The position numbers were made by a program, and so were the translations under genes. Below, one piece after another: positions 1,448 to 30,440 of a stretch of DNA of 50,368 bases; within the stretch, counting starts at the first letter, position 1; the number at the start of each line of letters is the position of its first letter. This DNA is from Escherichia phage GaoY1-9D, in sequence record PP971806.1; one strand, 5' to 3'. The notes below the pieces were generated by a model. The model worked only from the letters and a program-made list of their open reading frames with translations. It had not been told where the DNA came from and ran no database searches.

Positions 1448-2065
1448 ATGTCAAAGATTATCATTCTCAACGGTCCAGCTTCGGTTGGTAAAGACACGAT
1501 CGGCAACGAGCTCGCAGCGAATTACAAATGCATCCCGACCAGCTTCAAGCGTCCAATGTTTGAGATTGCAGCATCCATCCTTGGTGCCAGGGCTTTCTCA
1601 AAGTTCATCACCGCATACGACGACCGCGACCAGAAAGAGATGCCTCATGACTTTCTCGGTGGCAAGACCTGCCGTGAGTTCATGATCTGGATTAGCGAAA
1701 CAGTGGTCAAGCCGCTTTTTGGCAATCAGCAGTTCGGCAAATTGATGAGCGAACATATCCAGCTGTGTGATGAAGGCTTTAGCTTCGTTTGCACTGATGG
1801 CGGATTCCCAGATGAAGTAATCAGGCTCGTTGAAGATGGTCACGATGTTACCCTGGTCCGCCTGTTCATGGATGGGAAGACGTTCGAGGGAGATAGTCGT
1901 GATTATATCCGCATCAAGGAATCGCATTTCCCTGACTATAAGAAATATAACGAGAATGACGTTCATCTTGTGAATGGCGATATTGACGGCGGCGTCATGG
2001 CGGTTGTTCGCGCCTGCGGTATCCGTCCTGCAATCGACGAGTGGGCCGACGATATTCCTTGGTAA
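1448..2065 (+). CDS. P-loop kinase (polynucleotide or nucleotide kinase-like)
   Basis: Walker A GPASVGKDT near N-terminus; RBS AGGA upstream. Confidence 0.55.
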   Translation: MSKIIILNGPASVGKDTIGNELAANYKCIPTSFKRPMFEIAASILGARAFSKFITAYDDRDQKEMPHDFLGGKTCREFMIWISETVVKPLFGNQQFGKLMSEHIQLCDEGFSFVCTDGGFPDEVIRLVEDGHDVTLVRLFMDGKTFEGDSRDYIRIKESHFPDYKKYNENDVHLVNGDIDGGVMAVVRACGIRPAIDEWADDIPW

Positions 2066-2066
2066 A

Positions 2067-2130
2067 TAGCACTAATTGCTAAACCCGCCCCGGCGGGTTT
2101 TGTTATAGTTAGTTCACACCAAACGAGAGG
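2067..2130 (+). promoter_or_regulatory. intergenic cassette copy with terminator-like hairpin
   Basis: TAGCACTAATTGCTAAA 2067-2083; CCCGCC/GGCGGG hairpin then TTTTGTTATAGT; AAACGAGAGG before ATG 2139. Confidence 0.55.
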
Positions 2131-2138
2131 AAAGCAAT

Positions 2139-2297
2139 ATGATTACTATCAACCTGTCAGACAAGCAAGCTGCCGAGCTTAAAGAGGCGATTTCTATAAA
2201 GAAAATTCGATACGGCCAGCACGATCGCCCTGAAGTTATGAGGGAAGTAATTAAACAGATCAACAATCAACAATTTGACGAAAACGAAGGGGAATAG
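2139..2297 (+). CDS. small hypothetical protein (52 aa)
   Basis: ATG 2139 with cassette and RBS upstream; below the ORF-track size cutoff. Confidence 0.45.
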   Translation: MITINLSDKQAAELKEAISIKKIRYGQHDRPEVMREVIKQINNQQFDENEGE

Positions 2298-2299
2298 CC

Positions 2300-2698
2300 A
2301 TGAAGTTACGTTGCATAAAGATTAATCCATGCGCATCAGAATGGTTTAAGAAAGACTTTCAGGTTGGCAAGGTGTATGAGGCAGAGCGCGGTCGTGATAT
2401 CTACACAGGCACAGTAGATGTTATTGGTGGTAATGAAGGTATTGCTTGGTGCACTATACAGAAAGGAAGCAAATTCAACCTAAGCATCGGAAGTGGACCT
2501 GCTGTCACGTTCGAGCTGGTAAAGGGTCCGCGCCGCCTGGTTGTAACTGAAAAACGTGTAACTGGCGTATTGAACGACAAGCGAAAATTCCGCCGCATGT
2601 GCCGCCAGTACGGTAAGCTTCGATTCACTGAGCCTGGGATGTTCTGCTTTATCGCATGGCGAGCAATGAAAAAGAATGCACGAAATTACCAGCGATAG
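2300..2698 (+). CDS. hypothetical protein
   Basis: ORF with RBS GAAGGGGAA; stop TAG is first triplet of next cassette. Confidence 0.5.
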   Translation: MKLRCIKINPCASEWFKKDFQVGKVYEAERGRDIYTGTVDVIGGNEGIAWCTIQKGSKFNLSIGSGPAVTFELVKGPRRLVVTEKRVTGVLNDKRKFRRMCRQYGKLRFTEPGMFCFIAWRAMKKNARNYQR

Positions 2699-5282: not shown

Positions 5283-6865
5283 TCCAGTGGGAAGATCTCG
5301 ACCTTGCAAGAAAGCAGGCAATAAAGGCGCTATCTGAGCAGTCATTCGAAAAGATGTTGAGAATCTGGTTCCAGATCGGGCAGGCTCAGAAGTTCCAAAG
5401 CAACTGGCACTTCACTTACCTTTGCTGGAAGGTTGAGCAGATCATCAAAGGCGAGGCGCAGAACGTGATATTCAACATCACGCCAGGCTCCGGTAAGACT
5501 GAGATCTTCTCTATCCACATGCCAGTTTACGGAATGTTAAAGAGTCCGAAGGTTCGAAATCTTAACCTTTCGTTCTCTGACAGTCTGGTGAAGGATAACG
5601 GGATCAGGACGCGTGAGATTATCGGTTGCGATGAGTTCCAGGAGCTATGGCCTACCAAACTGGCTAAGGCGTCCGGTGGCGATATTACCGCGCTGAATGA
5701 TAACGATAAAGCGTGGCTGACGTTAACATCGCGCGCTATCGGTGGCCAGGTAACTGGTAAGCGTGGCGGATACATGGAAGACCCTGACAAGCCATGGAGC
5801 TTTACCGGAATGTTGACGCTTGATGACCCCGACAAGCCAAAGGATATGTACTCACCCGTTAAGCGGAAAGCGGCGCATACCCTGCTAAAAAACACCGTGC
5901 GATCTCGTCGCATGACAGACAGGACGCCATGTGTCGTGGTTCAGCAGCGGCTACACGTTAACGACTCGACGTGGTTCCTGATGAATGGCGGCATGGGCGG
6001 CATGAAGTTTGAGCAGGTAATCATTCCGGCGCTGGTAACTGAGGAATACAGAGACACGCTTCCTGACTGGTTGAAAGAGGAATTTGACAGAGACGTTCTA
6101 TCTTCCCCATCGGTAATGATTGACGGGGTTGAACACTTCTCTTTCTGGCCCGCGAAGGAAAGCGCAGAAAGCCTACTGGCGTTGCGCGAAGCTGACCTTT
6201 ACACCTTCGAGTCGCAGTATCAGCAGAAGCCAATCGCGCTTGGAGGTAACGCGTTTAAATCGGACTGGTTCCAGTATTACGGAGATGGCGAGAAGGCCAA
6301 CATGCCAAAGCCGGATCGCTTCGAATACCTTTTTACTACTGCGGATACGGCGCAGAAAGCCGAGGAAATTCACGACTACAGCGTCTTTGTTTTGTGGGGT
6401 AAGTATAAGGACCGCGTATATTTCATCGACGGCATTCGCGGTAAGTGGGAAGCGCCGGAACTTGAAAAGATGGCCCTTAACTTTTATGGCAACTGCTTCA
6501 AATGGGCGAAGGATAACAAGACTTCACTGCGCAAGGTTTACATTGAAGACAAGGCGAGCGGTACCGGCCTGATCCAGTCAATCAACAAGAAACTACCGAT
6601 TGATATTACGCCAGTTCAGCGAAATACGGATAAGGTAACTCGCGCAATGGACGCGGCGCCAATCATGAAAGCGGGGCGCTGTGTTTTTCCTGAGTCTCAC
6701 GAAATGTTAAGTGACATGGAGGTTGAGTTGGTTTCATTCACGTTTGATGATTCATCTCCTCACGATGACATTTGCGATAACGTCTTTGATGCTGTAAACT
6801 TTGAGATGAACTTGCTTGATGATCCGGTAGCGCGAATGAAACGATTAGCGGGAATGCGCAAATAA
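5279..6865 (+). CDS. terminase large subunit
   Basis: 528 aa; P-loop-like TPGSGKT near N-terminus; C-terminal acidic nuclease-type region; followed by portal. Confidence 0.8.
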   Translation: MIQWEDLDLARKQAIKALSEQSFEKMLRIWFQIGQAQKFQSNWHFTYLCWKVEQIIKGEAQNVIFNITPGSGKTEIFSIHMPVYGMLKSPKVRNLNLSFSDSLVKDNGIRTREIIGCDEFQELWPTKLAKASGGDITALNDNDKAWLTLTSRAIGGQVTGKRGGYMEDPDKPWSFTGMLTLDDPDKPKDMYSPVKRKAAHTLLKNTVRSRRMTDRTPCVVVQQRLHVNDSTWFLMNGGMGGMKFEQVIIPALVTEEYRDTLPDWLKEEFDRDVLSSPSVMIDGVEHFSFWPAKESAESLLALREADLYTFESQYQQKPIALGGNAFKSDWFQYYGDGEKANMPKPDRFEYLFTTADTAQKAEEIHDYSVFVLWGKYKDRVYFIDGIRGKWEAPELEKMALNFYGNCFKWAKDNKTSLRKVYIEDKASGTGLIQSINKKLPIDITPVQRNTDKVTRAMDAAPIMKAGRCVFPESHEMLSDMEVELVSFTFDDSSPHDDICDNVFDAVNFEMNLLDDPVARMKRLAGMRK

Positions 6866-6916
6866 TGTATAATGGCTAGGCTAACAACCTAGCCATTTTT
6901 ATTTGGAGAAAAGCAG

Positions 6917-8176
6917 ATGAGTAAAAAAAGCGTAAAGACCGACTCTTACAACAAGACGTTTAAGGGTGAAGGTACGGCAGGCGGCGCGCTTGCATCGCTG
7001 TATGATCAGATGTATGTGACGCAGTTTTACATTGATGATCCTATGGCTAAGAAAATTGTCGATGTTATTCCAGAGGAAATGGTTTTCCCTGGATTCGGCC
7101 TGGACGGGGTGAAGGATGAGAAGGCGTTCAAATCTTTGTGGGATGGCATGAAGCTTAACAAGCAGATTGTCGAGGCGTTCTCATGGGAGCGGCTTTATGG
7201 TGGTTCCGCTATCGTTGCCGTCGTCCGTGACAACCGACTCCTGACATCACCAATCAAGGAAGGTGCGCAGCTTGAATCAATCCGCGTCTACGAGAAAGAG
7301 CAGATCCGCATCAAGGACCGCGAGAAGAACGCGCGCAACCCTCGCTATGGTATGCCGAAGATTTACACCATTAACCCTGGCGGCAGCGTACCGGAATACG
7401 ACGTACACTACACGCGAATCTATGTTAACGGCGGCGAGCGCGTACCTAACTCACTTCGAGCGCAGAATAACGATTGGGGCGCATCGGTGCTGAGTAAGGG
7501 CTTGATTGACGCCATCCTGGACTACAACTACTGTGAAGAACTGGCTACTCAGCTATTGCGCCGTAAGCAGCAAGGCGTATGGAAAGTAAAAGGACTGGCT
7601 GATTTGTGCGACGATGACGAAGGGCGTTACGCGGCTCGACTGCGATTAGCTCAGGTTGATGACAATAGCGGCGTAGGCCGGACGATTGGCATTGATGCCA
7701 CCGACGAAGAATACGACGTCCTTAACTCAGACATTGGCGGCGTTGATGCTTTCCTGGATAAGAAGATGGACCGCATCGTCAACTACTCGCAGATTCATGA
7801 GATCATCCTCAAGAATAAGAACGTAGGCGGCGTGTCAGCGAGCCAGAACACAGCGCTTGAGACTTTCTACAAGATGATTGATCGCAAGCGTAACGAGTAT
7901 TACAGGCCGCTTCTGGAATGGCTTGTTCCGATGATTATTCAGGATGAGGAGTGGTCAATCCGCTTTGAACCGCTATCAATGCCAAGCGAGAAAGAGCAGT
8001 CCGAGACGTTGAAGAATAACGTTGATTCAATCTCAAAGCTGGTGGCGGATCAGGTCATTGACCGTGACGAGGCACGTGATACACTTGAGGCGATCTCGGA
8101 CTTTATCAAGATTCAAGGCCCAGCGCCGGAGCTTGAAATCGAACCAACTGACCCACAGGTGAGCAACGAGGAATAA
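6917..8176 (+). CDS. portal protein
   Basis: 419 aa ORF between terminase and head morphogenesis genes; acidic C-terminus. Confidence 0.75.
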   Translation: MSKKSVKTDSYNKTFKGEGTAGGALASLYDQMYVTQFYIDDPMAKKIVDVIPEEMVFPGFGLDGVKDEKAFKSLWDGMKLNKQIVEAFSWERLYGGSAIVAVVRDNRLLTSPIKEGAQLESIRVYEKEQIRIKDREKNARNPRYGMPKIYTINPGGSVPEYDVHYTRIYVNGGERVPNSLRAQNNDWGASVLSKGLIDAILDYNYCEELATQLLRRKQQGVWKVKGLADLCDDDEGRYAARLRLAQVDDNSGVGRTIGIDATDEEYDVLNSDIGGVDAFLDKKMDRIVNYSQIHEIILKNKNVGGVSASQNTALETFYKMIDRKRNEYYRPLLEWLVPMIIQDEEWSIRFEPLSMPSEKEQSETLKNNVDSISKLVADQVIDRDEARDTLEAISDFIKIQGPAPELEIEPTDPQVSNEE

Positions 8177-20807: not shown

Positions 20808-23800
20808 ATGATTAAAAATAGTGTAGTGACTGGCCGGAAGGGTGGAAGCAGTAAGCCGCATACCCCACAGGAGATGGAAGATAACCTGATCTCAATCAAC
20901 AAGATTAAGGTTTTGCTCGCTGTTAGTGATGGCGAGGTTGACGCGAATTTCTCATTAAAGGACTTATATCTTAATGATGTTCCTGTAATTGCACCTTCCG
21001 GCGAGGTTAACTATGAAGGAGTAACGGCTGAGTTCAGACCTGGTACGCAGGCACAGGACTACATCAAAGGATTTAACGACACGGCTGCTGAGTTCACTGT
21101 AGGTCGTGAACTGAAAACAACGACGCCTTACGTGATTTCAGTAACAAACAAACAGCTTTCCGCTGTTCGCGTAAAAATCCTGATGCCTCGCGGCGTTACC
21201 ACGAAAGAAAACGGCGACATGGTTGGCGTGGTCGTGAAGTGGGCCGTAGATATGGCGGTTGATGGAGGGAGCTACCAGGAGGTTTTATCTGACGTCATCG
21301 ATGGTAAGACGATTAGCGGATATGACAAGACAAAGCGTATTGACTTGCCGTCGTTTAATAGCCAAGTCCTGCTTCGGGTTCGTCGTGTTACTCCTGATTC
21401 GGATAATGCAAGAGTTGTTGACGCGATCAACATTCAGTCATATGCGGAAGTTATTGACGCTAAATTCCGTTATCCTCTGACTGGTCTTGTTTACGTTGAG
21501 TTTAACAGTGAGCTTTTCCCGCAGATCCCAAGCATTAGCACAAAAAAGAAATGGAAGTTGATTAACGTTCCGAGCAACTACAACCCAGAGCTACGTGAAT
21601 ATAGCGGCACATGGGATGGGAGTTTTAAAAAAGCATGGTCAAATAATCCGGCGTGGGTGCTTTATGATTTGATCACCAATCAGAGATACGGGCTCGACCA
21701 AAGAGAGTTGGGGATCGCCGTTGATAAGTGGTCGCTATATGATGCTGGTCAATACTGCGATCAGAAGGTTCCTGACGGTCACGGAGGGTTGGAGCCTCGC
21801 TACCTTTGCGATGTGGTAATCCAATCTCAGGTTGATGCTTACAATCTGGTTCGAGATATTTGCTCAATCTTCCGAGGAATGAGCTTCTGGAACGGCGAGA
21901 GCCTTTCAATTGTCATCGACCGACCTAGAGAGGCGTCGTATATTTTCACTAACGATAACGTCGTTGATGGCTCATTTGCCTATACGTTCGCAAGTGAAAA
22001 AAGCATGTACACAACCTGCAACGTCACGTTCGACGACGAGCAGAACATGTACAGCCAGGACATTGAGGGGGTATTCGACCTTAACGCCTCATTACGCTTC
22101 GGTCATAATCCGACAAGCATCACGGCGATCGGGTGTACTCGACGCAGTGAAGCGAATCGACGGGGCCGTTGGGTTCTCAAAACAAACCTTCGCAGCACGA
22201 CGGTGAGTTTTGCTACTGGCCTTGAGGGTATGATTCCGATGATTGGCGACGTGGTAGCAATCGCTGATAACTTCTGGTCAAGTAACCTGACGCTTTCGTT
22301 ATCAGGTCGTGTGATGGAAGTGTCAGGCCTGCAAGTGTTCACACACTTTAAGGTCGATGCGCGCGCTGGTGATTTCATTATCGTGAACAAGGCTGACGGA
22401 AATCCGGTGCGCCGGACGATTTCAAAAGTTTCTGCGGACGGGAAAACCATTGAGCTTAACGTTGGATTCGGTTTTGATGTTCAACCCAACACAGTGTTCG
22501 CAATCGACCGCACTGATGTGGCCTTGCAGCAATACGTTGTAACCGGAATCACGAAGGGCGACGGAGACGATGAGTTCACGTACAGCATTACTGCAGTTGA
22601 ATACGATCCGAACAAATACGACGAGATTGACTACGGCGTAAATATTGATGACCGACCAACCAGTATTGTAGATCCTGACAACATGCAGCCACCTAAAAAT
22701 ATCAAGGTGTCTTCATATTCAAGGATTGTCCAAGGAATGAGCGTAGAAACTATGGTCATCTCATGGGACAAAGTTCAGTACGCTAGCAAGTACGATGTGC
22801 AGTGGCGCAAGGACAATGGCAACTGGATGAACGTACCGCGAACAGCAAACAAAGAAGTCGAGGTTGAAGGGATTTATGCAGGCAATTATCACGTACGCGT
22901 AAGGAGCATCTCAAGAGGCGAAAATGCGTCTCCATGGTCTGAGGTTGTGAGCGTTGGATTGACGGGCAAGATTGGGAGGCCAGATAAACCAACAGTCATA
23001 ACTGCATCTGACGATCAGGTATTTGGTATCAGGGTTAAATGGGGATTCCCTGAAGGCTCTGGAGATACCGCGTACACTGAGTTGCAGCAGATACCAGATA
23101 ATGGAGCCGGAGGTCACACAGGCGAGGAGAATGCAAGCCTGTTAACAATGATACCATACCCTCAGTACGAGTACTGGCACTCTACACTACCGGCAGGATA
23201 TGTGAACTGGTACAGGGCAAGATTGGTAGACAGGATTGGTAACGCCTCTGACTGGTCTGACATTGTTCGCGGAATGGCAAGCGATGACGTTGAGTCAATA
23301 ATTGGAGAAATAAAGGTTGATATCGAGAATTCCGAGGGGTTTAAGTACCTACAGCAGAACGCCATTGAGTCAAACGGAGCTATTCAGGCGCAGGCGGAAT
23401 CAATTCTTGAAAACGCACTTGCAAACGACACGGACGTGCGACGAATGACCAAGGAAAACGGCAAGCGTAAGGCTGAATACGTTCAGGCGGTGAATCTTAT
23501 TGCTGATGAAACTCAGGCTCGCGTAGAGGCTCTCACGCAGCTTAAAGCACAGATTGATGATGAGGTTGTAGCTTCCATAACTGAAGTTCAGACGGCACTA
23601 GCCACCGAAACGGAAGCTAGGACTACTGCCGACACTGCTTTAAGCGCTCAGATTGGCGACACGCAGGCCGCACTGAATGAAAAACTTGACTCATGGGTAG
23701 ATGCAGAATCAGCTGGCGCTCAGTACGGCGTTAAATTGGGCCTCAAATACAATGGGGTTGAGTATAGTGCAGGGATGAGCATGGAACTTGTTGGCAGCGG

Positions 23801-24188
23801 TGCTGGTGTTAAGAGTCAGTTCATCTTTGACGCAAACAGATTCGCCATCAGTAACGGGATTGGATCTGGTTCCGGTCAGTGGGCATTGCCTTTTGTTGTT
23901 GAGAGCAACCAGGTGTTCATCCAGAGCGCAGTGATCAAGGACGGCTCAATCACTAATGCCAAGATTGGTAACAGGATTCAGTCAAACGACTACGTTACTG
24001 GATCTCAAGGGTGGGCGATTGATAAGTCTGGCACAGCTGAGTTAAGTAACGCAACTGTAAGGGGGAATCTGTACGCAAATAACGGTAACTTCGCATTCAA
24101 TGGAACAAACAATACTGTTCAGATTAACAACAATGGAATTACAGTAAACTTACCGAATGGAGGAAGGGTTGTAGTTGGAGTATGGTAA
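20808..24188 (+). CDS. central tail fiber / host specificity protein (J-like)
   Basis: 1126 aa, last gene of tail tip block. Confidence 0.85.
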   Translation: MIKNSVVTGRKGGSSKPHTPQEMEDNLISINKIKVLLAVSDGEVDANFSLKDLYLNDVPVIAPSGEVNYEGVTAEFRPGTQAQDYIKGFNDTAAEFTVGRELKTTTPYVISVTNKQLSAVRVKILMPRGVTTKENGDMVGVVVKWAVDMAVDGGSYQEVLSDVIDGKTISGYDKTKRIDLPSFNSQVLLRVRRVTPDSDNARVVDAINIQSYAEVIDAKFRYPLTGLVYVEFNSELFPQIPSISTKKKWKLINVPSNYNPELREYSGTWDGSFKKAWSNNPAWVLYDLITNQRYGLDQRELGIAVDKWSLYDAGQYCDQKVPDGHGGLEPRYLCDVVIQSQVDAYNLVRDICSIFRGMSFWNGESLSIVIDRPREASYIFTNDNVVDGSFAYTFASEKSMYTTCNVTFDDEQNMYSQDIEGVFDLNASLRFGHNPTSITAIGCTRRSEANRRGRWVLKTNLRSTTVSFATGLEGMIPMIGDVVAIADNFWSSNLTLSLSGRVMEVSGLQVFTHFKVDARAGDFIIVNKADGNPVRRTISKVSADGKTIELNVGFGFDVQPNTVFAIDRTDVALQQYVVTGITKGDGDDEFTYSITAVEYDPNKYDEIDYGVNIDDRPTSIVDPDNMQPPKNIKVSSYSRIVQGMSVETMVISWDKVQYASKYDVQWRKDNGNWMNVPRTANKEVEVEGIYAGNYHVRVRSISRGENASPWSEVVSVGLTGKIGRPDKPTVITASDDQVFGIRVKWGFPEGSGDTAYTELQQIPDNGAGGHTGEENASLLTMIPYPQYEYWHSTLPAGYVNWYRARLVDRIGNASDWSDIVRGMASDDVESIIGEIKVDIENSEGFKYLQQNAIESNGAIQAQAESILENALANDTDVRRMTKENGKRKAEYVQAVNLIADETQARVEALTQLKAQIDDEVVASITEVQTALATETEARTTADTALSAQIGDTQAALNEKLDSWVDAESAGAQYGVKLGLKYNGVEYSAGMSMELVGSGAGVKSQFIFDANRFAISNGIGSGSGQWALPFVVESNQVFIQSAVIKDGSITNAKIGNRIQSNDYVTGSQGWAIDKSGTAELSNATVRGNLYANNGNFAFNGTNNTVQINNNGITVNLPNGGRVVVGVW

Positions 24189-24193
24189 TAGAT

Positions 24194-24222
24194 AAAGCCC
24201 CTTAATTGGGGCTTTTCTTTTA
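24194..24222. terminator. bidirectional intrinsic terminator
   Basis: hairpin AAGCCCC-TTAATT-GGGGCTT flanked by A-run and T-run; convergent genes either side. Confidence 0.65.
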
Positions 24223-25185
24223 ATACATGTTTGGGGTAAAAGGAAGTGCCATTGATATGTTTGTATCAAATGGAAATTGAGCACCTGATTGCGTTGAGTA
24301 GTTACCAATTACAGTACCTGGAACTGCTCTAACATTGCCACCTGACATACATATTCCCTTATACCTAAGATTGTTGTAACCTCCTGTCACTCTTGTTGTT
24401 GCTCCACATCTAAGTATAGGAAAGAACCCACCCACATATTGCCAGTTGTTATTGATCTGAATGAAACCACCAAGGACAAATGGCCTCCTCACACTTGAGA
24501 ACACTATCTGCCCGGCGGGATTGCTCATTGTAATACCCGGGCCTGGCGGTGGAGGTGTATTGTTAAATATAACAAGATTAACATATGTGCTTGCGGCAAC
24601 GTCATCAGTTCCTCCGTATGTTATGTCTCTACACCATATTGTTGACCCATCAGACTCCAATGATACGTTTTGGTTATCCCACATGCCAAAAGGTATCCCA
24701 GAAACCGGAAGACTTGCCGCGCCGTTAACTTGCAACCCCCCAACGTACGCTGCGCTCATTAACCTGGCATTGTTTGGTATTGCTGTAAAATTAGTTGAGT
24801 TCTCTACAAGCAATCCCTGATTTCCAGCTGCGGCTGGCAGTATCTCAAAGCAACTACCGTAGAATCTTAATAGTCTACCATTCGAACCGTTGAAGTTTCC
24901 GATCCCAATGCGCCCCACAGAATCGCTAACCTTTGAGAAACTATTGAGGAAGTAGACCTCTGGAACAACATCAAAATCGTCAACATAAACGGCCTGGGAT
25001 GGTAGGCAAAATGCAGTTGATCCTGGGGTCATTGTTAACCCAAAATCCCACGATGAGTTTGAAGATGGGAAACCATCAGCCTGAATTGCTCCAGATACGG
25101 CAGGCGCTCTCAATCCAGCGGTAATCTCCATCGCTGGCCTTCCGTCATTTAGGTCAATCAATATACCTTGAGGCATTATTTCCAC
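24220..25185 (-). CDS. receptor-binding protein (putative)
   Basis: 321 aa on opposite strand just downstream of J, co-oriented with a lipoprotein gene. Confidence 0.45.
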
Positions 25186-25421
25186 TCCTTAGACCCATGG
25201 TCAGCCACTGAACCACCGTAACCTCCACCAGCCTTGCTCTCAATACCAGCGTAGCGCACATCAACTTCACCAGCTGGTACAATCACGCCACCTTTCCACT
25301 TAGCCACGCACACGCCGTTTGCTTGCGTTGCACACCACCCTTCAGGGCGAGGGCCAGAAGAACAACCAACTGTCATGATCACTGCTGCTGCGATGATTGC
25401 CGATTTGATTAAGTTAGTCAT
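25176..25421 (-). CDS. lipoprotein, candidate superinfection-exclusion protein (Llp/Cor-like)
   Basis: signal peptide with lipobox MTVGC; directly upstream of putative RBP. Confidence 0.55.
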
Positions 25422-25505
25422 TTTGTTTTCCTTAGTAAGTATTTTTCGTTTCGATGAAGTAACTATACATGCAACTATCGTCGGAGTCTTTAACTATTCG
25501 TGCTA
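25422..25505 (-). promoter_or_regulatory. intergenic cassette copy (minus orientation)
   Basis: reverse complement reads TAGCACGAATAGTTAAA ... GTATAGTTA ... CATCGAAACGAAAAAT. Confidence 0.5.
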
Positions 25506-25938
25506 TTGTATACACGTAACCAATGTAACTCGATGTATACAATCCCATCCGCGAGAAATGATATACGCACTGTTACGCCAATTTACGCAATGGTTACATT
25601 AAAATATCTATATATATCAACCTTTTACTCTTATTATTATTATTATATATATTACTGTGTATATCATGTAACTACTTATATAGAGTGTTCCGCTTATAAA
25701 TTTCTAATATGTACATTTATACAGTATTTAATCACAAGCATACCAATGCACCATCCGCCAGAAGCGATATACACGATATACACGCTATTTACATCTAGCT
25801 ATAGCTGGGCATGATAGCCATTTTATGTAACTAGCGCCAATGTATACACATGATTACAGATACATACACGTAACCACTTGACTAATGCAACCAGTCGCGT
25901 ATAGTTAGCCACATCAACAACGAACGAGGATTAAAGAG
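25506..25938. repeat. AT-rich non-coding region with GTATACAC-type iterons and (TTA)n/(TA)n tract
   Basis: repeated TGTATACAC and GATATACAC; ACACGTAACCA twice; about 100 bp related to 46005..46100. Confidence 0.6.
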
Positions 25939-28202: not shown

Positions 28203-28230
28203 TAAAAGGCCCCTTTCGGGGCCTTTTTTA
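28203..28230. terminator. bidirectional intrinsic terminator
   Basis: hairpin AGGCCCC-TTTC-GGGGCCT with flanking A and T runs. Confidence 0.65.
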
Positions 28231-30381
28231 TGAAACTCTAATGTTAAGGTTGCTTCCGTTATTTCTGTAGAATCCACCAACTGGAACGCCGACAGACGCC
28301 GCGGCGGAATCGCTATCAGCATCCCTGATTATTAACCCCCTATATTCAGAGCCAGCGTCATATGAATATCCATTTATTGTTGCCCCTCCAGATAATGAGT
28401 TAGTCTTAAGTGATAGACTACTATCTGTAACCTTGCTACCTCCGTAAGCGTAAATACCAAATTGCGAGCTGCACTTTCTCATGTCAACACCGTTAGCAAC
28501 AACAAGCCCATCAGGGTTGTTCCCAACTTTTAATCCGGCTAGCTTAGCTCCGTAGGTCGGTTCTGTTGTTGCATTCGGGTTAATTTGCTCATCAGACGCA
28601 ACTATTGCCCCACCCGTGATTGTTAAGTCAATATTTCCATAAGTTCCATCTATGGTTACAGCCCCGCCATCGCTTGACGTATATCCACCTCCAGTGATAA
28701 TGCAGTTATCTATGAAATTGTTAGTACCAGAGCCTTCGCCATCCCCAATGAAAACAACAGCGCATCTTTTAGCAACATCAAGCCACATGTTTGAGAATCT
28801 TGAGTACGACGTCCCGATGCACTGAACATGTATCCTTGTGTACTCTATCTTCCCACCAATAAAGGCAACACCAGAATGCGGACCCAACCTTATACCAACA
28901 CCAACAGTTTCCGACAATGAAGCAGGATCACTTCCTGAGTGGTATCCAATATCATTAATGTACATGCTTGTAATTGTTGAATCGCTTATGTTATTTGATG
29001 AATAGAACCCCGCTTCAACACACCCTGTAATCTGATCTCCGTAAGACCTGTGTAGACCTGCATTATCTGTCCTCAAACCAATCCTTGCGGCTCTAAACGT
29101 GCAGTTATTCCTTAAATGGTTATTGAATGACTCGGAGTTTGAGTTGTCGCTAAATCTCCTTCCGTATTCAATACAACAAACATCAGCACCCCTTGCGTCT
29201 ACGTCAATATTTGATATAGCTGTCTGCCTACAACCCCTAAAATCAAGAATCGGGTCAAGATATCCAAGAGAGTGATCACCAGCGAGCGCTATGGTTCCAT
29301 TCATATTTAAACCGCTATCAGAATAAGCCCACGAGGATAAAGGCCCAACAATTGACTTGCTACTACGCATCAAAATTGGTTTTTTAACGTAGTAATAATC
29401 ACCAATGTAGCACTCATTTACATATGGAGATGAAAGGCACAGGTTTATTGCTACCGAGTTATCAACGCTTGAATTGTGTGGGATTGCACCAAAAAACCTA
29501 ACATCAACAGGTCCTTTAAAAATACCACCAGAAAAACCATCCCTAAAAATCTGCGAAGATTCTCCAACGTTAATTACCAACCCGCCATCAGGTGTCATAT
29601 CTCTTGATTTTTCAACAGAAAAAATACCACCACCGCTATCATTGGTAGAAGAAATATTTTTAATAAAGATATAGTCACCATCATTTACATTACTATCAAG
29701 AACATCTCTTACAAAATTGAATGTCTTGAATTTTTGCTCTGATTTTGAGTAAACATCAAGGTTCTGCCTTGCAAGTTGCTTATCTGTTAAGTCCGATAGT
29801 GCCAAATCTTTTCTCAATAAGTTTTGCGTATCAAGTGATGCGGCATAATCAGCTGCCTCCTGAGCAGATGCTGCGGCAGAATCTTTGTCATTACTTGCCG
29901 AGATTGCGCTTGCGGCTGCGGCATTCTTATCAGATGATACTTGAGCAGCATCTGTGGCAACCTGGCTTCCAATAGTAACAACATCACTATGCTGCGAGTT
30001 AACCTGAGAAACCTTTGTTTCAAAGTCATTTGCATCGAAGTTGTTGAAAGCATCAACAGCATCGGCAACCTCTGTTTCGCGTGACTGATAGTAACGCAAA
30101 GTCTCGGCAACACCCTGAGCCAAACCCTGAACTGTAATCCCATCGTGCGCAAGGATCGCGTAACCTGTACCTGCTGGTGCTGTTTCACCATTTGGATTAT
30201 ATACAGATAAAGACGTATCACTAGCGATCTCAGTGATAGTGTAAATCTGCACCGGATCAGTTTTAAATACGATTGTGGCACCAACTCGAATTAGCGTCAG
30301 CGGCATAGCCCATTGAGTTCCAGCGCCAGTAACTTGACCGTTTTCTGTAAGGCTGGCTGTGCCAGTATCATAAATTGACAT
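28228..30381 (-). CDS. lateral tail fiber / tailspike-like protein
   Basis: about 718 aa; Ala/Ser-rich linker; Gly/Asn-rich repeat-like C-terminal region; start ATG 30381 with RBS AGGAG. Confidence 0.65.
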   Translation of the reverse strand: MSIYDTGTASLTENGQVTGAGTQWAMPLTLIRVGATIVFKTDPVQIYTITEIASDTSLSVYNPNGETAPAGTGYAILAHDGITVQGLAQGVAETLRYYQSRETEVADAVDAFNNFDANDFETKVSQVNSQHSDVVTIGSQVATDAAQVSSDKNAAAASAISASNDKDSAAASAQEAADYAASLDTQNLLRKDLALSDLTDKQLARQNLDVYSKSEQKFKTFNFVRDVLDSNVNDGDYIFIKNISSTNDSGGGIFSVEKSRDMTPDGGLVINVGESSQIFRDGFSGGIFKGPVDVRFFGAIPHNSSVDNSVAINLCLSSPYVNECYIGDYYYVKKPILMRSSKSIVGPLSSWAYSDSGLNMNGTIALAGDHSLGYLDPILDFRGCRQTAISNIDVDARGADVCCIEYGRRFSDNSNSESFNNHLRNNCTFRAARIGLRTDNAGLHRSYGDQITGCVEAGFYSSNNISDSTITSMYINDIGYHSGSDPASLSETVGVGIRLGPHSGVAFIGGKIEYTRIHVQCIGTSYSRFSNMWLDVAKRCAVVFIGDGEGSGTNNFIDNCIITGGGYTSSDGGAVTIDGTYGNIDLTITGGAIVASDEQINPNATTEPTYGAKLAGLKVGNNPDGLVVANGVDMRKCSSQFGIYAYGGSKVTDSSLSLKTNSLSGGATINGYSYDAGSEYRGLIIRDADSDSAAASVGVPVGGFYRNNGSNLNIRVS

Positions 30382-30405
30382 AATTTCAACTCCTATTTTT
30401 ATTGA

Positions 30406-30440
30406 TAGCACGAATTGCTAAAGCGCAGTATAGCATTACT
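30406..30440. promoter_or_regulatory. cassette-like dyad copy without downstream gene (orientation ambiguous)
   Basis: TAGCACGAATTGCTAAA 30406-30422 then GCAGTATAGCAT; followed by terminator. Confidence 0.35.

Follow-up and report, generated by a model that had tools for sequence, protein, structure and literature searches.

A probable LptD-type receptor-binding protein locus, with its partner lipoprotein, in Escherichia phage GaoY1-9D

The J-like tail-tip gene of Escherichia phage GaoY1-9D (PP971806.1) is followed on the opposite strand by a pair of genes which, from sequence comparison, very probably represents the LptD-type ‘bona fide RBP locus’ of the small siphophages (Drexlerviridae and relatives). 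This type of locus comprises a receptor-binding protein (RBP) and a lipoprotein which blocks LptD. The pairing of an RBP with a lipoprotein directed at the same receptor, put forward in an earlier note on this DNA, is upheld by homologs of both proteins that have been solved on LptDE (9rpt for the RBP and 9rps for Rtp45, the latter matching at E = 3.2e-35). The terminal receptor of the phage is most likely LptD, as predicted by homology. The window refers throughout to the whole stretch of 50,368 nt that was analysed.

Loci of this kind have already been described by Maffei et al. 2021, by Dunbar et al. 2025 and in a 2026 receptor-prediction preprint, and no new biology is added beyond those accounts. 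The value of the locus lies in a receptor that is predictable from sequence, namely LptD, an essential and conserved outer-membrane protein. Such a prediction is useful for choosing or engineering phages, for considering resistance routes (loops EL4, EL5 and EL11) and for considering cross-exclusion in cocktails.

Gene layout downstream of J

The coding features of the locus are as follows.

20808..24188, + strand: lambda-J-like central tail-tip protein, context gene (Pfam domains, ORF list)
24220..25176, − strand: receptor-binding protein, 318 aa, DUF6453/PF20051, predicted LptD-type, homolog of Rtp44, RBP_Oeko and OzMSK_038 (Pfam, PDB, AF2/Foldseek)
25185..25190, − strand: Shine-Dalgarno AAGGAG for the RBP, 8 nt before ATG 25176 (read from the sequence)
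25176..25421, − strand: predicted superinfection-exclusion lipoprotein, 81 aa, PF24052, Rtp45 family (Pfam, 9rps_D, Rtp45 identity)
25429..25433, − strand: Shine-Dalgarno AAGGA, 7 nt before the lipoprotein ATG (read from the sequence; conserved in CJ19, AHP24 and Rtp)

The J-like protein of 1126 aa contains the Pfam domains FNIII-A_GpJ, Phage-tail_3, fn3 and Phage_Tail_Tip. Its stop codon lies at 24188 and that of the RBP at 24220, with only a GC-rich hairpin between the two. The ORF list places the minus-strand frames at 24220..25185 and 25176..25421, and the lipoprotein and RBP genes overlap by one base in a TAATG sequence. Both are real genes because they match the Pfam families DUF6453 (E = 4.6e-138) and Phage_lipoprotein PF24052 (E = 2.9e-38). 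The opposite-strand lipoprotein and large-protein pair directly after J, as claimed in the earlier note, is therefore borne out by the ORFs, the families and the overlap. No model matching either protein was found in NCBIfam or PADLOC, and no known RNAs were returned by the Rfam and tRNA scans of the whole window.

The same arrangement of genes is present in ESCO41, AHP24, OzMSK, CJ19, Rtp, Bas01, Bas14 and CEB_EC3a. The Rtp44/Rtp45 pair of coliphage Rtp (Braunvirinae) shares the position after the J homolog, the opposite strand and the 1-nt overlap, although the backbone of the window is Nouzillyvirus-like, not that of an Rtpvirus. After ESCO41, the closest group of alleles is that of OzMSK_038/039 and the Rogunavirus phages (Rogue1, AHP24, AHS24 and C119), with an RBP of 77-80% identity and a lipoprotein that is 91% identical and also 81 aa long. 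In OzMSK the lipoprotein gene and the control region are separated by a DNA methylase gene, which is absent from the window.

The RBP most likely begins at ATG 25176, giving 318 aa, and not at GTG 25185, the start of the maximal ORF. This start is preferred because of the TAATG overlap, the AAGGAG located 8 nt upstream, the N-termini of the homologs, all of which begin M-[PAG]-x-G-I, and the homologous start annotated in ESCO41, AHP24, OzMSK and Rtp. GTG 25185 itself falls inside the Shine-Dalgarno sequence (25190..25185). The length of 321 aa given in the earlier note is that of the ORF from GTG and does not hold for the likely product. The Shine-Dalgarno sequence sits within the end of the lipoprotein gene, and a ribosome-binding site is annotated at the equivalent place in OzMSK. 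Translation of the RBP is probably coupled to that of the lipoprotein, given this placement and the TAATG overlap.

The receptor-binding protein and its predicted receptor

The match to DUF6453 (459.9 bits against a cut-off of 25) spans residues 7-298 of the 321-aa ORF and covers the entire profile (positions 1-291 of 291). Homologs of the RBP were found in 333 phage records. Against the PDB, residues 2-318 matched 9rpt_C, the Oekolampad RBP on LptDE, at E = 1.1e-68, with 141/313 positions identical (about 45%). The AF2 model of the RBP (mean pLDDT 88.9, pTM 0.87) consists of strands only, and no helix in it reaches 4 residues. In a Foldseek search of the PDB with this model, 9rpt_C was the sole match at E <= 0.001 (E = 4.4e-20, TM 0.84 target-normalised), the second-ranked match having E = 0.59.

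Work on the BASEL collection (PMC8594841) and a 255-phage screen (bioRxiv 10.64898/2026.04.02.716166) have both linked the locus type downstream of gpJ to LptD. The same preprint defines an LptD-type RBP by >30% identity and >99% coverage to RBPs with experimental LptD dependence. The RBP of the window lies within these limits for OzMSK, Bas20, Oekolampad, Bas14 and Rtp44. Its identity, end to end in all cases, is 95% to ESCO41, 77% to OzMSK, 45% to Bas20, 41% to Bas14 and only 39% to Rtp44. Experimental LptD dependence has been recorded for OzMSK, Bas14 and Bas20, and OzMSK did not plate on either lptD loop-deletion mutant.

Oekolampad (Bas18, Dhillonvirus) belongs to a different phage group, and its full-length RBP homolog has been solved with LptDE by cryo-EM (PDB 9rpt/9rpw/9rqi). 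In RBP_Oeko the bond to LptD Ser350 is made by Gln299, and the protein of the window also has a Gln at the aligned position. Identity to RBP_Oeko falls to 20-30% in segments 31-120 and 241-270. The least conserved segments of the RBP are residues 31-120 and 241-255, and the receptor-contacting loops of DUF6453 RBPs have been reported to be variable. These segments may be compatible with a shifted binding mode or specificity. An alternative is that the locus does encode an RBP and an exclusion lipoprotein, but that another outer-membrane protein takes the place of LptD for this allele, or that a second receptor is needed and contacted through J. The variability of the tip loops within the family is in line with it, as is Bas01, which needs NupG besides LptD by way of a J domain, according to bioRxiv 10.64898/2026.04.02.716166. 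However, the experimentally assigned DUF6453 RBPs all target LptD, with the four locus families reported to be receptor-specific, and the closest tested relative, OzMSK, is LptD-dependent at 77% identity. The cognate lipoprotein is also 75% identical to the LptDE-binding Rtp45. As to a second receptor, the J segment 881-940 has 95-100% identity with Rtp43 and no more than 40-55% with the divergent segment of Bas01, which is presumably the one associated with NupG. The alternative is thus regarded as improbable.

Preference for LptD is consistent with the end of the J-like protein, in which one further feature was located.

24069..24185, + strand: last 39 codons of J, LYANNGNFAFNGTNNTVQINNNGITVNLPNGGRVVVGVW, putative docking segment for the DUF6453 RBP (J C-terminus comparison)

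The last ~40 residues of J are of a variant common to the nine DUF6453 phages compared (ESCO41, CJ19, AHP24, OzMSK, Shfl1, Rtp, Bas14, Bas20 and Klebsiella NJS1) and absent from T1, which uses FhuA. The J proteins of Shfl1 and T1 align closely just upstream of the differing C-terminal segment. Roughly the final 72 residues make up the C-terminal half of the aligned J tail, and here the nine DUF6453 phages are 58-93% identical to the window, versus 38% for T1. GpJ C-terminal ends are described as receptor-specific in bioRxiv 10.64898/2026.04.02.716166. The J-like protein would carry the RBP at its distal end.

In the proposed mechanism, the 318-aa DUF6453 protein would be made as a component of the virion, and its conserved N-terminus would dock onto the J-like protein, at the conserved stretch of ~40 residues with which the latter ends. 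By homology to the solved complex, the distal loops of the RBP would enter the extracellular mouth of the LptDE LPS translocon (LptD EL3-5 and EL11). Insertion of the RBP in LptDE would then lead to irreversible adsorption and DNA ejection.

The claim of the earlier note that the locus determines host range stands for the terminal receptor only. LptD is essential and highly conserved (PMC8594841), and strain-level host range therefore probably rests more on the lateral fiber and host defences. A full division of roles, in which the locus fixes the terminal receptor and strain-level range is set mainly by a glycan-recognising lateral tail fiber (28228..30411) and host immunity, is possible but less likely than not. 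Maffei et al. (PMC8594841) found the lateral tail fiber loci to be the most variable region, some such phages depend on O-antigen or the LPS core (PMC8594841), and a fiber protein of 727 aa is encoded in the window on the minus strand, downstream of the genes for recombination. This division complements the assignment to LptD and does not exclude it. Point mutations in LptD are, even singly, enough to stop related phages from infecting, so the locus is still required for infection.

The lipoprotein and superinfection exclusion

Two features were predicted within the lipoprotein gene.

25365..25421, − strand: lipoprotein signal peptide, ending ...IMTVG-C20
25362..25364, − strand: codon of the predicted lipidated Cys20 (lipobox)

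The match to PF24052 (130.1 bits against a cut-off of 27) covers positions 1-80 of 80. In the PDB the protein matches 9rps_D, Rtp45, to which it is 75% identical. A sequence search of the PDB with the lipoprotein returned Rtp45 alone and no Llp match. Residues G19, C20, C30 and C38 are invariant among 15 lipoprotein homologs, and the lipobox MTVGC named in the earlier note is confirmed by this invariance and by the signal peptide. Under the Lol-avoidance rule, Ser rather than Asp at position +2 directs a lipoprotein to the outer membrane. The +2 residue is Ser21, not Asp, and the protein should therefore be lipidated at Cys20 and, by this rule, sorted to the outer membrane.

Cys20, Cys30 and Cys38 are all kept in Rtp45, which has been placed on the periplasmic face of LptDE(M) by cryo-EM (PDB 9rps). 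According to bioRxiv 10.1101/2025.07.07.663478, which deals with the mechanisms of the RBP and the exclusion lipoprotein on LptDE, Rtp45 has a Cys30-Cys38 disulphide and a strand of residues 30-35 which pairs with LptD residues 318-323. These residues are CATQAN in the window versus CATQAS in Rtp45. Rtp45 is 76 aa long and the protein of the window 81 aa, with a 5-residue glycine-rich insertion (GGGYG-type) near residues 61-66. The exclusion lipoprotein of Oekolampad is only 35% identical to Rtp45, compared with 75% for that of the window. Rtp45 is said to have been proposed as a Cor-like exclusion lipoprotein by Wietzorrek et al. in 2006, reportedly along with inverted repeats for the regulator Rtp52.

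The 81-aa protein would be exported and lipidated at Cys20, and Ser at +2 should place it in the outer membrane, on the inner leaflet. Its homology to Rtp45 suggests that it would bind LptD from the periplasm, at a site between LptE and LptM. Its hairpin would go up the LptD lumen and displace loop EL4, such that LptD no longer accepts the RBP. This block would protect infected cells from superinfection and spare the loss of progeny on infected cells and debris. For Rtp45, exclusion rests on binding and a steric rationale in the accessible portion of bioRxiv 10.1101/2025.07.07.663478, in which no in vivo exclusion assay was found.

A similar strategy is seen in T5 pb5 and Llp, where a dedicated RBP at the central fiber tip is accompanied by a small, periplasm-facing, receptor-blocking lipoprotein. 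The receptor of T5 is FhuA, however, and PDB sequence searches found no sequence relationship. The mode of action also differs, with Llp acting by long-range allostery and Rtp45 by steric displacement of loop EL4, as set out in bioRxiv 10.1101/2025.07.07.663478.

A further alternative treats the 318-aa product as non-structural, a ‘membrane protein’ or moron, and the lipoprotein as an unrelated FhuA blocker of the Cor/Llp type. PHROG 1265 is labelled ‘membrane protein, moron’, the RefSeq homologs are named ‘membrane protein’ and one record labels the lipoprotein ‘Cor’. The modelled RBP is nevertheless an all-beta soluble fold matching a solved RBP, and the similarity to T1 Cor is confined to the signal peptide, with the PDB search giving Rtp45 and not Llp. 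This interpretation is thus hardly credible beside that of an LptD-type pair. A Cor/Llp identity (T1, phi80, N15, T5) was rejected for the lipoprotein, as only residues 1-24 align with T1 Cor. The T1 FhuA-type locus (ST32, ST31 and cor) sits at the same genomic site, flanked by J and the exonuclease VIII gene, and also has a minus-strand lipoprotein at its end. This identity was likewise rejected, since its two J-strand genes are unrelated to DUF6453 (BLASTP against ST31, E = 0.13), both genes of the window lie on the opposite strand and T1 has another J C-terminal end.

Module exchange and transcription signals

The non-coding features and the extent of the module are as follows.

24000..25500: module judged to be horizontally exchanged, running from the J end across the hairpin, RBP and lipoprotein to about 80 bp upstream of them (CJ19 identity profile)
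24194..24224: hairpin AAAGCCCC-TTAATT-GGGGCTTT plus T-tract, common to the convergent J and RBP genes (terminator scan, folding)
25488..25700, − strand: conserved non-coding element upstream of the leftward operon, candidate divergent promoter/operator region (conservation, annotated promoters in relatives)
25672..25667 and 25647..25642, − strand: candidate leftward promoter GTTACA, N19, TATAAT (weak consensus match)

The boundaries of the module were mapped with CJ19 and ESCO41. On either flank the window is about 86-99% identical to CJ19, the closest genome, falling to 47-80% between ~24000 and ~25500. On this profile, the J end, RBP and lipoprotein are an exchangeable module, because identity drops only within that interval. 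The mapped module (~24000..25500, including the last ~40-60 J codons) is the piece that would need swapping in order to retarget the phage. Within it, identities of the RBP and lipoprotein to the window are unequal, at 39% and 75% for Rtp, 41% and 74% for Bas14, and 76% and 41% for Shfl1. It is conceivable on these figures that the lipoprotein acts as a generic ‘LptD lock’, which would exclude every LptD-targeting siphophage whatever RBP allele it carries. In this speculative and rather unlikely scheme, the alleles of the two genes would reassort independently and the RBPs would diversify against the surface loops of LptD. The 81-aa insertion variant would be a distinct, longer plug, and the 200-bp TATACA-rich region would time early expression.

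The hairpin at 24194..24215 consists of an 8 bp stem, in which 5 of the pairs are G-C, and a loop of 6 nt. Either strand can form it, with folding energies of −16.5 kcal/mol for the + strand and −15.4 kcal/mol for the − strand (z about −4.1 each). The + strand tail, UUUUCUUUU, is clearly that of an intrinsic terminator in the terminator scan, and the hairpin is the terminator for J. On the minus strand the tail, UUUAUCUAUUA, is weaker, and it did not pass the T-run rule of the scanner. In AHP24, terminators are annotated on both strands at the equivalent place, and the hairpin probably also terminates the leftward transcript. Of the bidirectional terminator described in the earlier note, the + strand half is thus secure and the minus-strand half less so.

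The co-transcription of the lipoprotein and RBP genes, also proposed there, follows from their 1-nt overlap. A cassette promoter is not supported, as none was found adjoining the genes and the promoter scan gave only weak sigma-70 matches 200-250 bp upstream. The best leftward matches either scored 9/12, within the AT-rich stretch 25633..25667, or had a non-optimal 19-nt spacer. The upstream element at 25488..25700 is 92-100% identical to Rtp (about 95% over ~200 bp), although the RBP proteins are only 39% identical there. It is matched at 90% or more in 88 phage records, and annotations of AHP24 and CEB_EC3a place promoters inside it. These features suggest that leftward transcription probably begins at a divergent early-region promoter that is shared, and not at one belonging to the cassette. 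One leftward mRNA would start near 25630-25680, in the conserved divergent control region, carry both genes and end at the hairpin shared with J.

The 222 nt upstream of the lipoprotein, searched for a structured 5′ leader, fold no better than shuffles (z = +1.25), and conservation of this leader is therefore not explained by RNA structure. The word GTATACAC was rejected as a genome-wide operator, with only 3 copies in the window, a count reached by 6/100 shuffles. TATACA hexamers are locally enriched in the control region.

Organisation of the gene pair downstream of J

The genome is that of a T1-like siphophage of the Drexlerviridae. At whole-genome level it is closest to XT34 and to the Nouzillyvirus phages CJ19, p111 and ESCO41 (~88-92% nucleotide identity). 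As the earlier note had it, an opposite-strand gene pair lies directly after J, the tail-tip gene.

Features at the end of J
20808..24188, plus strand: J, 1126 aa, lambda-J-like tail-tip protein (Pfam FNIII-A_GpJ, Phage-tail_3, Phage_Tail_Tip)
24194..24215, both strands: hairpin AAAGCCCC-TTAATT-GGGGCTTT, six bases past the J stop codon, then TCTTTT
24220..25185, minus strand: larger ORF (receptor-binding protein, RBP), maximal extent; stop codon four bases beyond the hairpin
25176..25421, minus strand: lipoprotein ORF, directly preceding the RBP ORF

At the junction of the two genes (minus strand, AAGGAGTGGAAATAATG), the last A of the lipoprotein stop TAA (25178..25176) is the first base of an RBP ATG (25176..25174). 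An AAGGAG lies 8 nt upstream of this ATG, and the alternative GTG at 25185 falls within that Shine-Dalgarno. All RBP homologues start M-[P/A/G]-x-G-I, and the one-base overlap is also annotated in ESCO41, AHP24, OzMSK, Rtp, CJ19, Bas01 and Bas14. The RBP is therefore 318 aa in length, starting at ATG 25176, and not the 321 aa first proposed. The overlap and internal Shine-Dalgarno point to one mRNA, with probably coupled translation.

The leftward transcript would be expected to end at the hairpin shared with J. This has a free energy of -16.5 and -15.4 kcal/mol, one value per strand, and 0/200 shuffles folded equally well on each strand. A bidirectional terminator had been suggested; folding on both strands agrees with this, but the U-tract, good on the plus strand, is only moderate on the minus strand.

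Relationship to LptD-binding proteins

The 318-aa protein belongs to Pfam DUF6453 over its full length (E = 4.6e-138). Its sole match in a PDB sequence search, end to end, is chain C of 9rpt/9rpw/9rqi (E = 1.1e-68), with 141/313 HMMER-aligned positions identical (~45%). This chain is the RBP of Oekolampad (Bas18), reported from cryo-EM as inserted into LptDE, the lipopolysaccharide translocon, on its extracellular side (bioRxiv 10.1101/2025.07.07.663478). An AlphaFold2 model built on 38 homologues was all-beta and confident (mean pLDDT 88.9, pTM 0.87). The only significant Foldseek match of the model in the PDB was 9rpt_C (E = 4.4e-20; TM 0.84, normalised to 254 modelled residues), the next match having an E of 0.59. 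Members of this family are widely mis-annotated, as ‘membrane protein’ in RefSeq and ‘moron/membrane protein’ in PHROG 1265.

The 81-aa partner is assigned to Pfam PF24052 ‘Phage lipoprotein’ (E = 2.9e-38). The lipobox noted earlier is present, with Cys20 following a hydrophobic signal peptide, and G19, C20, C30 and C38 are invariant in 15 family members. Under the Lol-avoidance rule, a Ser at +2 leads to outer-membrane sorting, and the Ser at this position predicts the same for the present protein. The sole match in the PDB sequence search is 9rps chain D (E = 3.2e-35; 75% identity), which is Rtp45, the superinfection-exclusion lipoprotein of phage Rtp, described on the periplasmic face of LptDE (bioRxiv 10.1101/2025.07.07.663478). 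Rtp45 is reported to have a Cys30-Cys38 disulphide and to form a beta-sheet between residues 30-35 and LptD 318-323 (bioRxiv 10.1101/2025.07.07.663478); these residues are CATQAN here versus CATQAS in Rtp45. Unlike Rtp45, the present lipoprotein contains a glycine-rich insertion of five residues at about residues 61-66. The family has two length classes, 76-aa and 80/81-aa, and the insertion marks the latter, including the Rogunavirus and OzMSK proteins. One public record names the Rtp45-type lipoprotein ‘Cor’.

Maffei et al. 2021 (PMC8594841) assigned the allelic variants of a ‘bona fide RBP locus’, sited downstream of gpJ, to their respective receptors, and lptD mutations occurred in mutants resistant to Bas01, Bas02, Bas14, Bas18, Bas19, Bas20 and Bas25 (PMC8594841). 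OzMSK was resisted by both lptD loop-deletion strains (PMC13035648). A 2026 preprint describes four locus-encoded protein families, unrelated to one another and specific for FhuA, BtuB, LptD and YncD respectively (bioRxiv 10.64898/2026.04.02.716166), and places a phage in the LptD group at >30% identity over >99% coverage to the RBP of an LptD-assigned phage. The present RBP was above these values against every LptD representative compared, with identities of 77% to OzMSK, 45% to Bas20, ~45% to Oekolampad, 41% to Bas14 and 39% to Rtp44, the Rtp homologue. As negative controls, the FhuA locus protein ST31 of T1 had no significant similarity to the RBP (E = 0.13), and the likeness of T1 Cor to the lipoprotein was confined to the signal peptide. 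The gene arrangement of the T1 locus also differs.

The last ~40 residues of J (LYANNGNFAFNGTNNTVQINNNGITVNLPNGGRVVVGVW) are common to all DUF6453-carrying phages in the comparison, which span four different taxa. They are absent from T1 J, though it is nearly the same as Shfl1 J just upstream. This end of J is a further independent indicator of LptD as the receptor. Bas01 is reported to require NupG besides LptD, through a J domain (bioRxiv 10.64898/2026.04.02.716166). J residues 881-940 (23448..23627) are 95-100% identical to Rtp43, the J homologue of Rtp, and 40-55% to Bas01; flanking J is 50-80% identical to Rtp43. On this pattern the segment is a recombination patch within J. It is also the only one where Bas01, with 33 extra residues, departs strongly from Rtp. 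If the Bas01-divergent segment is the NupG-associated domain, the present J may lack a domain of this type, for which the evidence is weak.

The locus is of the same type as Rtp44/Rtp45, functionally and by descent. Every defining feature of that type open to sequence comparison was found, and LptD binding and exclusion are predicted. The proposed pairing of an RBP with a receptor-blocking lipoprotein is supported by the homologues solved on LptDE. RBP_Oeko is described as binding an open LptDE state and contacting loops EL3-5 and EL11 (bioRxiv 10.1101/2025.07.07.663478). For related phages, the single LptD substitutions D352Y and Y671N abolish binding and infection. Rtp45 is placed between LptE and LptM, its hairpin extending up the LptD lumen and displacing EL4 by up to 20 Å, a shift that does not allow the RBP to bind (bioRxiv 10.1101/2025.07.07.663478). 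By homology, the present RBP would bind open LptDE through EL3-5 and EL11, and its lipoprotein would sit between LptE and LptM, its hairpin shifting EL4 and blocking the RBP. The best-conserved part of the RBP is the N-terminus (residues 1-30), placed at the model ‘base’ by the OzMSK authors (PMC13035648); from this conservation, its probable docking site is the conserved C-terminus of J. The T5 pair pb5/Llp on FhuA works alike but is unrelated, and Llp exclusion is reported as allosteric, that of the Rtp45 type as steric (bioRxiv 10.1101/2025.07.07.663478).

The probable divergent control region

Non-coding features upstream of the pair
25422..25938: AT-rich spacer, 517 bp, from the lipoprotein gene (minus) to an exonuclease-VIII-like gene (plus)
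25488..25700: conserved element, 92-100% identical to Rtp

The promoter is the weakest point of the account. The earlier note gave the cassette its own promoter, but the minus-strand scan returned only 9-of-12 matches, at 25667..25633 and 25840..25811. More probably, the pair is the end of a leftward operon, which would be driven from a divergent control region that also serves the exo/erf/ssb operon. This reading follows from the observations below. The element is conserved beyond its flanking genes (protein identity to Rtp in the neighbouring RBP is just 39%), being matched at >=90% in 88 phage records of Braunvirinae, Rogunavirinae-related phages and Nouzillyvirus, always at the divergence point of leftward and rightward operons. 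Leftward promoters are annotated inside it in AHP24 (GTTACA-N19-TATAAT) and CEB_EC3a. Finally, extra minus-strand genes intervene between element and lipoprotein in relatives: rha in ESCO41, an anti-repressor in CEB_EC3a, a methylase in OzMSK, two genes in Veterinaerplatzvirus 2005IV and four in Bas01. The types comprise rha/anti-repressor, Dcm-like or other DNA methylases, a DNA-binding protein and hypothetical proteins. The present phage is the minimal version, with zero extra genes at 25422..25500; the ESCO41 insertion point maps to ~25480-25500.

The spacer contains 11/28 of the window's TATACA/TGTATA hexamers and all three of its TGTATACA palindromes, along with one repeat of 13 nt, exact (ATACACGTAACCA, at 25510 and 25864), and another of 22 nt (at 25545 and 25751). 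Such sequences may be operator sites for a regulator of the phage. Among rightward promoter matches, TTGACT-16-TATAGT (25878..25905) is the best. Leader RNA structure upstream of the lipoprotein gave no signal (z = +1.25).

Module exchange and host range

Identity to the closest genome, CJ19, is ~86-99% up to ~23900, 47-80% from ~24000 to ~25500 and ~80-100% thereafter. The dip indicates that the exchanged piece comprises the last ~60 J codons, the hairpin, both genes and ~80 bp upstream; on this comparison the locus is a mobile module. RBP and lipoprotein identities are discordant (Rtp 39%/75%, Bas14 41%/74%, Shfl1 76%/41%, ESCO41 95%/84%), which argues for recombination between the two genes and different histories. 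The RBP falls in a sub-clade sharing common motifs with ESCO41 (95%), Rogunavirus alleles (80%), OzMSK, Shfl1 (76%) and CJ19 (65%). The closest database proteins to the pair are 94-95% identical, and the locus represents a new allele, carried by a new phage.

In Klebsiella Webervirus NJS1, a DUF6453 homologue (33% identical; 1501..2457 of the stretch compared, unannotated in RefSeq) lies on the J strand directly after J, with no adjacent lipoprotein. The same holds for an E. coli prophage copy in GCA_003773125.1 (48% identical; 6001..6957 of the stretch compared), with an integrase ~3 kb downstream; in a second contig with this protein, a Phage_tail_C_2 fiber gene comes next. The family thus also occurs in temperate phages and in the other gene orientation. 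The lipoprotein is likewise absent from Bas20. Seven records named ‘Campylobacter phage’ and one named ‘Pseudomonas phage’ contain coliphage-like copies of the locus.

With an essential, conserved protein as its target, the locus sets the terminal receptor, and the suggestion that it determines host range holds in that sense. At strain level, the lateral fiber and host defences are probably the more important determinants. A 727-aa putative lateral tail fiber/tailspike gene (28228..30411, minus strand), with no Pfam match and annotated as tail fiber in relatives, is likely the other host-range determinant.
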